The translations under genes were made by a program, and so were the position numbers. A stretch of 6,312 bases of DNA, from the IMG/VR virus record IMGVR_UViG_2703718871_000012; one strand, given 5' to 3'. Each line of letters opens with the position of its first letter. The stretch's first letter is position 1. The notes under the pieces are model-generated. The model was not told where the DNA came from and did no database searches. It worked only from the letters and a program-made list of their open reading frames with translations. This DNA is from a virus. Lineage: Duplodnaviria; Heunggongvirae; Uroviricota; Caudoviricetes. Below are positions 895-1,035 of this stretch, one piece after another.

Positions 895-1035
895 ATGTCG
901 CAAAAATCGCTCATCACCGTCACAATTTGCATGACGGTTATCTTCACCATCTGGATGTTGCACGGTTCACTGTGTGAGTTCCGGCTGAATTTGTGGGGAG
1001 CGGAGTTTGCGGCGTTCTTACAGTGTAAGCAGTAG
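895..1035 (+). CDS. Hok/Gef-family type I toxin (small membrane toxin), 46 aa
   Basis: ATG 895 preceded by AGGAGA (881-886, 8-nt spacing), TAG stop at 1033-1035. Translation MSQKSLITVTICMTVIFTIWMLHGSLCEFRLNLWGAEFAAFLQCKQ has an N-terminal hydrophobic helix followed by S-L-C-E-[FIL]-R and E-[FLV]-A-A-F-L motifs. From memory this matches the Hok family signature, closest to HokA/HokE/PndA. Too short to appear in the supplied ORF track. Confidence 0.7.
   Translation: MSQKSLITVTICMTVIFTIWMLHGSLCEFRLNLWGAEFAAFLQCKQ

Follow-up and report, generated by a model that had tools for sequence, protein, structure and literature searches.

Two described systems stand closest to the locus considered here. 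In the hok/sok locus of plasmid R1, the toxin is governed through the mok frame: mok translation to at least the hok Shine-Dalgarno (SD) sequence is mandatory, and mutations in the mok start codon abolish toxicity (PMC9841398). In the Shiga toxin (Stx) phage Sp5, hokW-sokW helps lysis and phage release, and mutations in the sokW −10 element abolish antitoxin activity (Takada et al. 2021, PMC8621323). No Hok of an Stx phage has been studied functionally elsewhere. On a broader scale, the preprint text of Escalera-Maurer et al. gives 44,248 Hok homologues, of which 23% lie in prophages as against 5% expected (bioRxiv 10.1101/2025.08.07.668861). The locus examined here lies in a 6,312-nucleotide stretch of viral DNA (hereafter the window; Caudoviricetes, IMG/VR record IMGVR_UViG_2703718871_000012), and its hok gene encodes a Hok/Gef-family toxin of 46 amino acids.

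Our conclusion, to which we give a probability of about 85%, is that window positions 712-1104 make up a complete type I toxin-antitoxin cassette of the hok/sok type, which Stx-type lambdoid prophages carry as cargo, and that this cassette and hokW-sokW are two separate hok loci of these phages. The evidence bearing on this comprises the toxin gene and its selection; the sharp boundaries of the cassette; the conserved elements of the hok mRNA; and a predicted Sok antisense RNA on the opposite strand.

An earlier note on this DNA, made from the sequence alone, had picked out the toxin gene as a lone 46-codon open reading frame (ORF). The frame is confirmed, with an identical translation in the ORF listing, and so is the strong SD, since AGGAG lies 9 nucleotides 5′ of the ATG; the RNA parts that make the gene a toxin-antitoxin locus were missed. 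The described layout is also present: a hydrophobic stretch (residues 6-22) is followed by the motifs GSLCEFR and EFAAFL. This 17-residue helix has a mean Kyte-Doolittle value of 2.32, as against 0.24 for the polar residues 24-46. Cysteines occupy positions 12, 27, and 44, the latter two in the C-terminal part. The peptide is thereby predicted to consist of one N-terminal transmembrane helix and a short, polar, cysteine-bearing C-terminal part, as is expected of the family. The family search that the note had proposed agrees with its Hok/Gef assignment: Pfam HOK_GEF (PF01848) matches residues 8-44 over profile positions 6-42 of 42, at 33.2 bits (E 4e-8) against a curated gathering cut-off of 22 bits.

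Forty-six codons alone is an unremarkable length. The window contains 65 ORFs of at least 30 amino acids, and so short a frame might be a noncoding chance opening in an intergenic spacer. That explanation is refuted by the Pfam E value, by conservation across five enterobacterial taxa, and by substitutions that are exclusively synonymous; we regard its probability as practically nil. In a large protein database 56 relatives were retrieved, which derive from E. coli, Shigella, and Salmonella, the full-length members nearly all 46 amino acids long. A few are called longer or truncated, and every named one is a "Hok/Gef family protein". When they are aligned, hardly any variation is seen in the C-terminal half or at the two distal cysteines, and the helix varies conservatively. 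The ORF is kept in E. coli, Shigella, Salmonella, E. albertii, and Citrobacter, and is intact in all 54 unique variants of the cassette. Among 24 cassettes with an identical peptide there are nine distinct coding sequences, and all 10 of their variable sites are synonymous. Against more distant members, the ratio of non-synonymous to synonymous polymorphism (pN/pS) is 0.26-0.40. The Pfam score, the intactness in every variant, and this pattern of substitution raise the ORF above chance: the hok gene is real and under purifying selection.

Within the family, the peptide is 43% identical to K-12 HokA; 35% to HokD and to HokW of phage 933W; 30% to HokE; and 26% to HokB and HokC. The earlier note had named HokA, HokE, and PndA as its nearest kin. 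HokA is indeed the closest K-12 paralogue, and HokE is not, falling below HokW and HokD. Orthology with HokA was considered and rejected: the top NCBIfam match is the HokA equivalog NF007290, yet at 38.4 bits against a cut-off of 89. By sequence, the 46-residue toxin belongs to a subfamily separate from HokA. Columns invariant in the alignment with HokA-E and HokW are M1, C12, T14, L26, E28, and E37; C27 is present in all except HokB. The survey logo, drawn from 1264 unique Hok peptides, has M1, C16, T18, L30, C31, E32, and E41 kept in more than 80%, and the preprint describes tyrosine at that cysteine position in HokB (bioRxiv 10.1101/2025.08.07.668861). All seven residues are present here as M1, C12, T14, L26, C27, E28, and E37.

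The gene is not new: annotations and a catalogue entry exist for it, and the identical peptide is reported to be toxic. The earlier note had called it unannotated, which does not hold for current records. In RefSeq NZ_CP075632.1 (E. coli 2018-166) the cassette is 100% identical and the ORF is annotated as WP_000078907.1, "Hok/Gef family protein"; in two phage records it bears the names "MokW-like host killing" and "prophage host toxic membrane protein". Only older records lack an annotation; in 933W (AF125520), for example, the cassette sits in an empty gap between lom and L0129. The toxicity test that the note called for has in effect been done. Escalera-Maurer et al. assayed 45 representatives under an arabinose promoter, and their Table S2 ("All experimentally tested Hok sequences") includes LRP157 = 72_1589, from a high-abundance cluster, whose peptide is identical to that of the window. 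According to the preprint text 42 of the 45 constructs were toxic, and 72_1589 is not among the three named exceptions (bioRxiv 10.1101/2025.08.07.668861).

The cassette is also widespread. An 801-nucleotide stretch containing the ORF has matches in 198 phage records, among them 933W, VT2-Sakai, Min27, phi24B, and Shigella Stx phages; 1602 of 5426 complete E. coli genomes; and 22 plasmids. Thus about 30% of complete E. coli genomes carry the cassette, in up to seven places per genome. The note had found the placement in a phage cargo region striking; that claim is weak, given the same slot in 198 phage records and the published enrichment of hok in prophages. Further matches fall in assemblies that bear the names of Xanthomonas pisi (one contig of 857 bp, 100% identical), a Planococcaceae metagenome-assembled genome, and Vagococcus sp.; these most likely reflect enterobacterial contamination, not host range.

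In the phage, E. coli, and plasmid matches the shared piece is always the same, query 113-505, corresponding to window 712-1104. Identity to the 53 other unique cassettes is 57-100% within this interval (one N-masked contig apart), and in most loci it drops at once to random levels, about 0.2-0.3, beyond either end. Because identity is high inside and random just outside, the interval is a discrete module. Its 5′ neighbour is a tail-fibre remnant in the window and lom in 933W-type phages.

The hok mRNA predicted from this module (positions 748-1104) folds at −153.9 kcal/mol (z = −6.4), with the tac-like and fbi-like elements paired and a stable hairpin near the 3′ end. The TTG of the hok −35 element is conserved, and the predicted start, at about G748, coincides with position 1 of the Rfam hok-leader alignment. 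When the RNA is cut just 3′ of the hairpin, tac re-pairs with 774-782 in the predicted fold. RNAalifold analysis of 50 unique sequences gave 92 pairs, 14 of them with compensatory changes. A long-range 5′-3′ pair near tac and fbi (~782 with ~1080) covaries (UA 22, CG 17), as do two pairs of the 3′ hairpin: one is AU in 29 sequences and GC in 21; the next is CG in 21, AU in 21, and GC in 6. By analogy with the R1 hok mRNA, this hairpin is likely to be a stop for 3′ exonucleolytic processing. Read on the minus strand (1044-1067), the same hairpin resembles an intrinsic terminator, its stem followed by CGGTTTTCCT, and could stop antisense transcription coming from the side of the adhesin gene.

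Rfam family RF01794 aligns end to end with window 748-905, at 34.2 bits (E 5e-5), below its threshold of 59 bits. Three controls, K-12 hokC and hokB and 933W hokW, score 110-118 bits, in each case on the hok strand and over the interval between the mRNA 5′ end and the hok AUG. Because the match takes this form in loci with an annotated sok, RF01794, although named sok, models the hok leader rather than Sok RNA. The copy next to lom in 933W scores 35.6 bits. The leader of these cassettes, designated cluster 72 in the Hok survey, is a divergent member of the family, and Rfam-based annotation would miss the cluster (34-36 bits against 59).

On the opposite strand, homology predicts a Sok RNA that has a promoter of its own and is complementary to the leader of hok; its ends are likewise predictions. 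In minus-strand order, TTGTCT (889-884) is followed by 17 nucleotides, TAACCT (866-861), a start at about G853, a 17-nucleotide tail, the hairpin GGCCUCGGGUUAAC...GUUGACUCGGGGCC, and UUUC. The 57-nucleotide RNA has a predicted folding energy of −26.9 kcal/mol. Its layout and hairpin sequence (GGCCUCGGG...CUCGGGGCCUUU) agree with annotated SokB, SokC, and SokW. The predicted Sok 5′ end is separated from the hok ATG by 42 nucleotides; in the annotated loci the interval is 44-49. The 45 nucleotides 5′ of the annotated sokW start in 933W carry TTGCCT-17-TAACCT, with the same −10 hexamer and spacing as in the window. The −10 block (861-873) is nearly invariant among the 54 variants, and the Sok −35 element spans the hok SD on the opposite strand. 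RNAalifold, applied to 28 unique variants of the Sok strand, found only the 10-bp hairpin base conserved, with almost no covariation; the proposed Sok structure therefore rests on conservation and homology.

Table. Features of the hok/sok cassette in the window, with the grounds for each assignment
Feature	Positions	Strand	Grounds and remarks
Whole hok/sok cassette, ~390 bp, discrete mobile module	712-1104	+	Sharp identity drop at both ends
Predicted hok promoter: −35 TTGCCG (713-718), 17-nt spacer, −10 TACAGT (736-741)	713-741	+	Relaxed scan; 8/12 consensus matches
tac-like 5′ element GGGUGCC	748-754	+	Pairs with 1094-1100 in minimum-energy fold; nearly invariant in 50 variants
Degenerate mok frame; start codon position (792-794) is ATA	792-974	+	Frame open 765-974 (70 codons); overlaps hok
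14-codon upstream ORF (MERPRVNFNVNPRP)	794-838	+	Opened by G794A change; GTG in most relatives
Predicted Sok antitoxin RNA, ~57 nt: 17-nt 5′ tail, 16-bp terminator hairpin, UUUC	797-853	−	Homology to SokB, SokC, SokW
Predicted Sok promoter: −35 TTGTCT (889-884), 17-nt spacer, −10 TAACCT (866-861)	861-889	−	Homology to sokW; conserved block
hok Shine-Dalgarno AGGAG	881-885	+	SD-like purine block in all relatives; predicted pairing with 872-876 in both RNA forms
hok coding sequence, 46-aa Hok/Gef-family toxin	895-1035	+	ORF list, Pfam, alignment, selection; WP_000078907.1, Hok survey cluster 72
Stable 3′ stem-loop	1045-1067	+	Two covarying pairs; terminator-like on minus strand
fbi-like 3′ element GGCACCC	1094-1100	+	Pairs with tac in full-length fold; 6/7 bases invariant in 50 variants

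Could this cassette simply be the characterised hokW-sokW of Sp5 and 933W? Both are found in the same phages, and one phage record does name the window-type ORF "MokW-like host killing". In 933W (AF125520), however, hokW lies at 58.46-58.73 kb on the minus strand, with annotated mokW and sokW, and the plus strand bears a window-type cassette at 45.48-45.87 kb, with a peptide 100% identical to that of the window. HokW, as deduced from the study primers, has 51 amino acids, begins MKQQKAM, and ends DYESEK (PMC8621323); the two toxins share 35% identity. The leaders differ as well, at 113.5 bits on RF01794 for hokW and 35.6 for the window-type copy of the same phage. The identification was rejected on the location of hokW 13 kb away and on the low identity, and it is hardly conceivable that it could be right. 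Hence 933W and Sp5 carry two different hok/sok loci, about 13 kb apart in 933W.

Literature searches found no named description of a second hok locus in Stx phages: "hok" occurs only within "Hokkaido" in PMC6256406, is absent from the main text of PMC11333237, and appears only as hokE in PMC11125564. Since PMC8621323 never mentions a second locus, the lom-adjacent cassette was still present in the deletion strain of Takada et al.

The mok leader is where the window departs from the canonical arrangement. In the window the start codon position reads ATA, the open mok frame contains no ATG, GTG, or TTG upstream of hok, and no canonical mok ORF of at least 20 amino acids overlaps the hok start. 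In cassettes L054, L031, L034, L038, and L040, of which L054 is closest to the window, ATG is found at 792-794 and opens a 61-codon mok. A single G-to-A change both converts this mok ATG to ATA and creates the new ATG at 794, the start of a 14-codon upstream ORF that stops 42 nucleotides before the hok SD. The upstream peptide is conserved neither in frame nor in length among relatives (5-60 codons), and in another clade GTG at 794 opens a 60-codon frame. Overall, 19 of the 54 unique cassettes have a mok-like ORF (13 of them with at least 60 codons), and 35, including the 933W type, have none. The ATA/ATG794 variant of the window is shared by cassette L033 (IMGVR_UViG_2529293141_000015, 1341-1400), in which the promoter and tac are replaced by unrelated sequence; L033 is a natural 5′-truncated copy, in which tac-fbi closure should be impossible.

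Several points weigh against reading 712-1104 as a complete, working cassette. A sigma-70 scan of positions 650-1400 found no promoter on either strand; the hok and Sok promoters were assigned by relaxed scan or by homology to annotated sok genes, and because the stricter scan was empty, they rest on relaxed matching and homology. The tac-fbi helix itself carries no covariation evidence, its elements being essentially invariant among the 50 sequences. The window copy of mok lacks a start codon, and 35 of the 54 variants lack a mok ORF. In both predicted RNA forms the hok SD (with 872-876) and AUG (with 1006-1015) are paired, with a probability of being unpaired of about 0.2; this sequestration, together with the requirement for mok in R1, means that the window copy may make little or no Hok. 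The toxicity of 72_1589, as given in the preprint text, is that of a protein over-expressed with a foreign SD (bioRxiv 10.1101/2025.08.07.668861). In the literature found, there were no measured transcript ends, Sok RNA, or Hok protein for this cassette. Finally, prophage maintenance, an aid to lysis (as for hokW), and phage exclusion are all possible services of the cassette, and the evidence does not discriminate among them. The hok/sok system of R1 reportedly excludes T4.

Taken together, the mok and folding observations suggest another explanation: that the cassette is a translationally silent relic, in which the hok ORF and RNAs persist and the toxin goes unmade for want of mok. The same idea has been proposed for several K-12 chromosomal hok loci. 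The ATA in place of the mok ATG, the many variants without mok, the paired SD and AUG in full-length and truncated folds, and the loss of toxicity in R1 mok start mutants all fit it. So does the state of the closest paralogue, K-12 hokA, which is itself disrupted by IS150, with mokA and sokA pseudogenes. Against it stands the selection on the peptide: the 24 cassettes that show 10 synonymous and no non-synonymous differences include 17 without a mok-like ORF. Hok is intact in 54 of 54 variants, its strong SD is conserved, and conservation of the Sok promoter and hairpin would make little sense without a target to repress. A silent relic is, in our judgement, unlikely. For the copies without mok, two possibilities arise: that members of this cluster translate Hok independently of mok, or that expression is poor in many of them. 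The former is favoured by the purifying selection that acts on the peptide in exactly such copies. What the lack of a mok translated up to the hok SD does weaken is the claim of a canonical, R1-type organisation. It does not lower the claim of a working hok/sok toxin-antitoxin cassette.

We take the mechanism to be of the hok/sok type, and its working can be outlined by analogy. If it follows R1, the plus strand would give rise to a hok mRNA of about 357 nucleotides, kept closed at full length by tac-fbi pairing. Slow trimming from the 3′ end to the hairpin at 1045-1067 would free tac, which would then re-pair with 774-782. Homology suggests that the minus strand would yield an unstable Sok of about 57 nucleotides with complementarity to the leader, its promoter overlapping the ribosome-binding site of hok. 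As long as Sok is made, the hok mRNA would be silenced or degraded. When Sok synthesis stops, Hok would be made, enter the inner membrane, and depolarise or kill the cell. The toxin might be triggered by loss of the prophage, by its induction, or by an infecting phage that shuts off the host. Flanking fibre and cargo genes run in the direction of the cassette, so that upon induction, speculatively, read-through from late and cargo genes could raise the level of hok sense RNA and collide with transcription of Sok.

The target of the predicted Sok 5′ tail proved to be the most variable part of the cassette among copies with an identical toxin. Among 23 cassettes with an identical toxin, the 18-nucleotide segment 836-853 has 71% variable columns and eight haplotypes, as against 5-7% variable columns in the coding sequence, the 3′ untranslated region (UTR), and the tac leader. 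The mean pairwise distance is 0.36 for the target; 0.13 for synonymous sites; 0.024 for the 5′ leader; and 0.006 for the 3′ UTR. These figures come from a short segment of uncertain alignment and from non-independent pairs. Indels in the segment shift the mok frame, and two cassettes of a single genome, L034 and L058, have different predicted Sok tails. The variability could reflect selection for Sok/hok pairs that do not cross-react in poly-lysogens, or the segment could be the sole unconstrained stretch; it is a lead only.

A bolder proposal would join these observations. Cluster-72 cassettes might be mok-independent hok/sok systems with a fast-evolving Sok tail and target, each co-resident prophage of a poly-lysogen having its private pair free of cross-reaction, and the indels that created specificity might also have destroyed mok. 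We rate this as improbable. If true, Stx phages would hold two mechanistically different Hok systems, and the hokW-deletion phenotype would underestimate the contribution of Hok to lysis and release.

The surroundings of the cassette offer further observations. As the earlier note had it, the hok ORF has a fibre gene and an adhesin gene as neighbours: an apparent remnant of the former (ORF 73-693) on one side, and a YadA-like example of the latter (from ~1386) on the other. The former ORF, 206 amino acids long and just 5′ of the cassette, resembles a tail-fibre C-terminus. In a sister strain the fibre gene is frameshifted and incomplete according to RefSeq, so that a remnant may be all that is left of it beside hok. 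The spacer that separates the cassette from the adhesin gene (1110-1376) is very rich in A+T, as is typical of morons that were acquired separately and bring a regulatory region of their own. The adhesin (1377-2524) is split in the window into an ORF of 63 amino acids with a signal-peptide-like start (1377-1568) and one of 309 (1595-2524). In the near-identical strain 2018-166 it is a single coding sequence of 398 amino acids (6787-7983 of its locus); the two differ by a 57-nucleotide indel at window 1544/1545 and are 97.7% identical thereafter. Farther downstream, an 83-amino-acid ORF (4222-4473) has a C-terminus that is glycine-rich and glycine-zipper-like, and is found at the same position in 933W-type phages. 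From its position and equal length, it is probably the gene labelled "bacteriocin" by RefSeq and by one Stx-phage record.

As gene discovery, the present analysis has no value; its practical use is to correct existing records and to point to a second locus. The toxin gene goes unannotated in older Stx-phage records, among them the 933W reference AF125520 and several of the VT2-Sakai type. Studies of toxin-antitoxin effects on Stx-phage induction, lysis timing, and prophage stability should count both loci. Beyond what the earlier note had seen, the second Stx-phage hok locus, the broken mok, and the hypervariable Sok-tail target are modest leads; the loss of mok beside a conserved toxin, and the variability of the target, raise small questions about type I diversification.

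Comparison with known systems places the cassette as follows. The peptide is identical to that of construct 72_1589 from Hok cluster 72 of Escalera-Maurer et al., whose study contains no analysis of mok, Sok, or mRNA structure for the cluster (bioRxiv 10.1101/2025.08.07.668861). With K-12 HokA (hokA/mokA/sokA) the toxin shares three cysteine positions, the SLCE and AAFL motifs, and the best NCBIfam match. HokA differs in having 50 amino acids and in the IS150 disruption of its gene, with mokA and sokA annotated as pseudogenes.

With hokW-mokW-sokW the cassette shares its phages, the type of system, the Sok −10 element TAACCT, and the 17-nucleotide spacer. It differs from that locus in that hokW has an intact 70-codon mokW and a canonical leader, scoring 113.5 bits on RF01794.

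With hok/sok of R1, the likeness is chiefly one of plan. Both encode a small inner-membrane toxin on an mRNA of about 360-400 nucleotides with tac-fbi closure; both have a short cis-antisense Sok (here predicted), composed of a 5′ tail and a terminator hairpin and aimed at the leader upstream of hok. The predicted switch to tac-internal pairing after 3′ trimming resembles the change from tac/fbi to tac/ucb in R1 (PMC9841398). The differences are that the R1 toxin has 52 amino acids rather than 46; that one system resides on a plasmid and the other in prophages; and that mok, required in R1, is start-less here.

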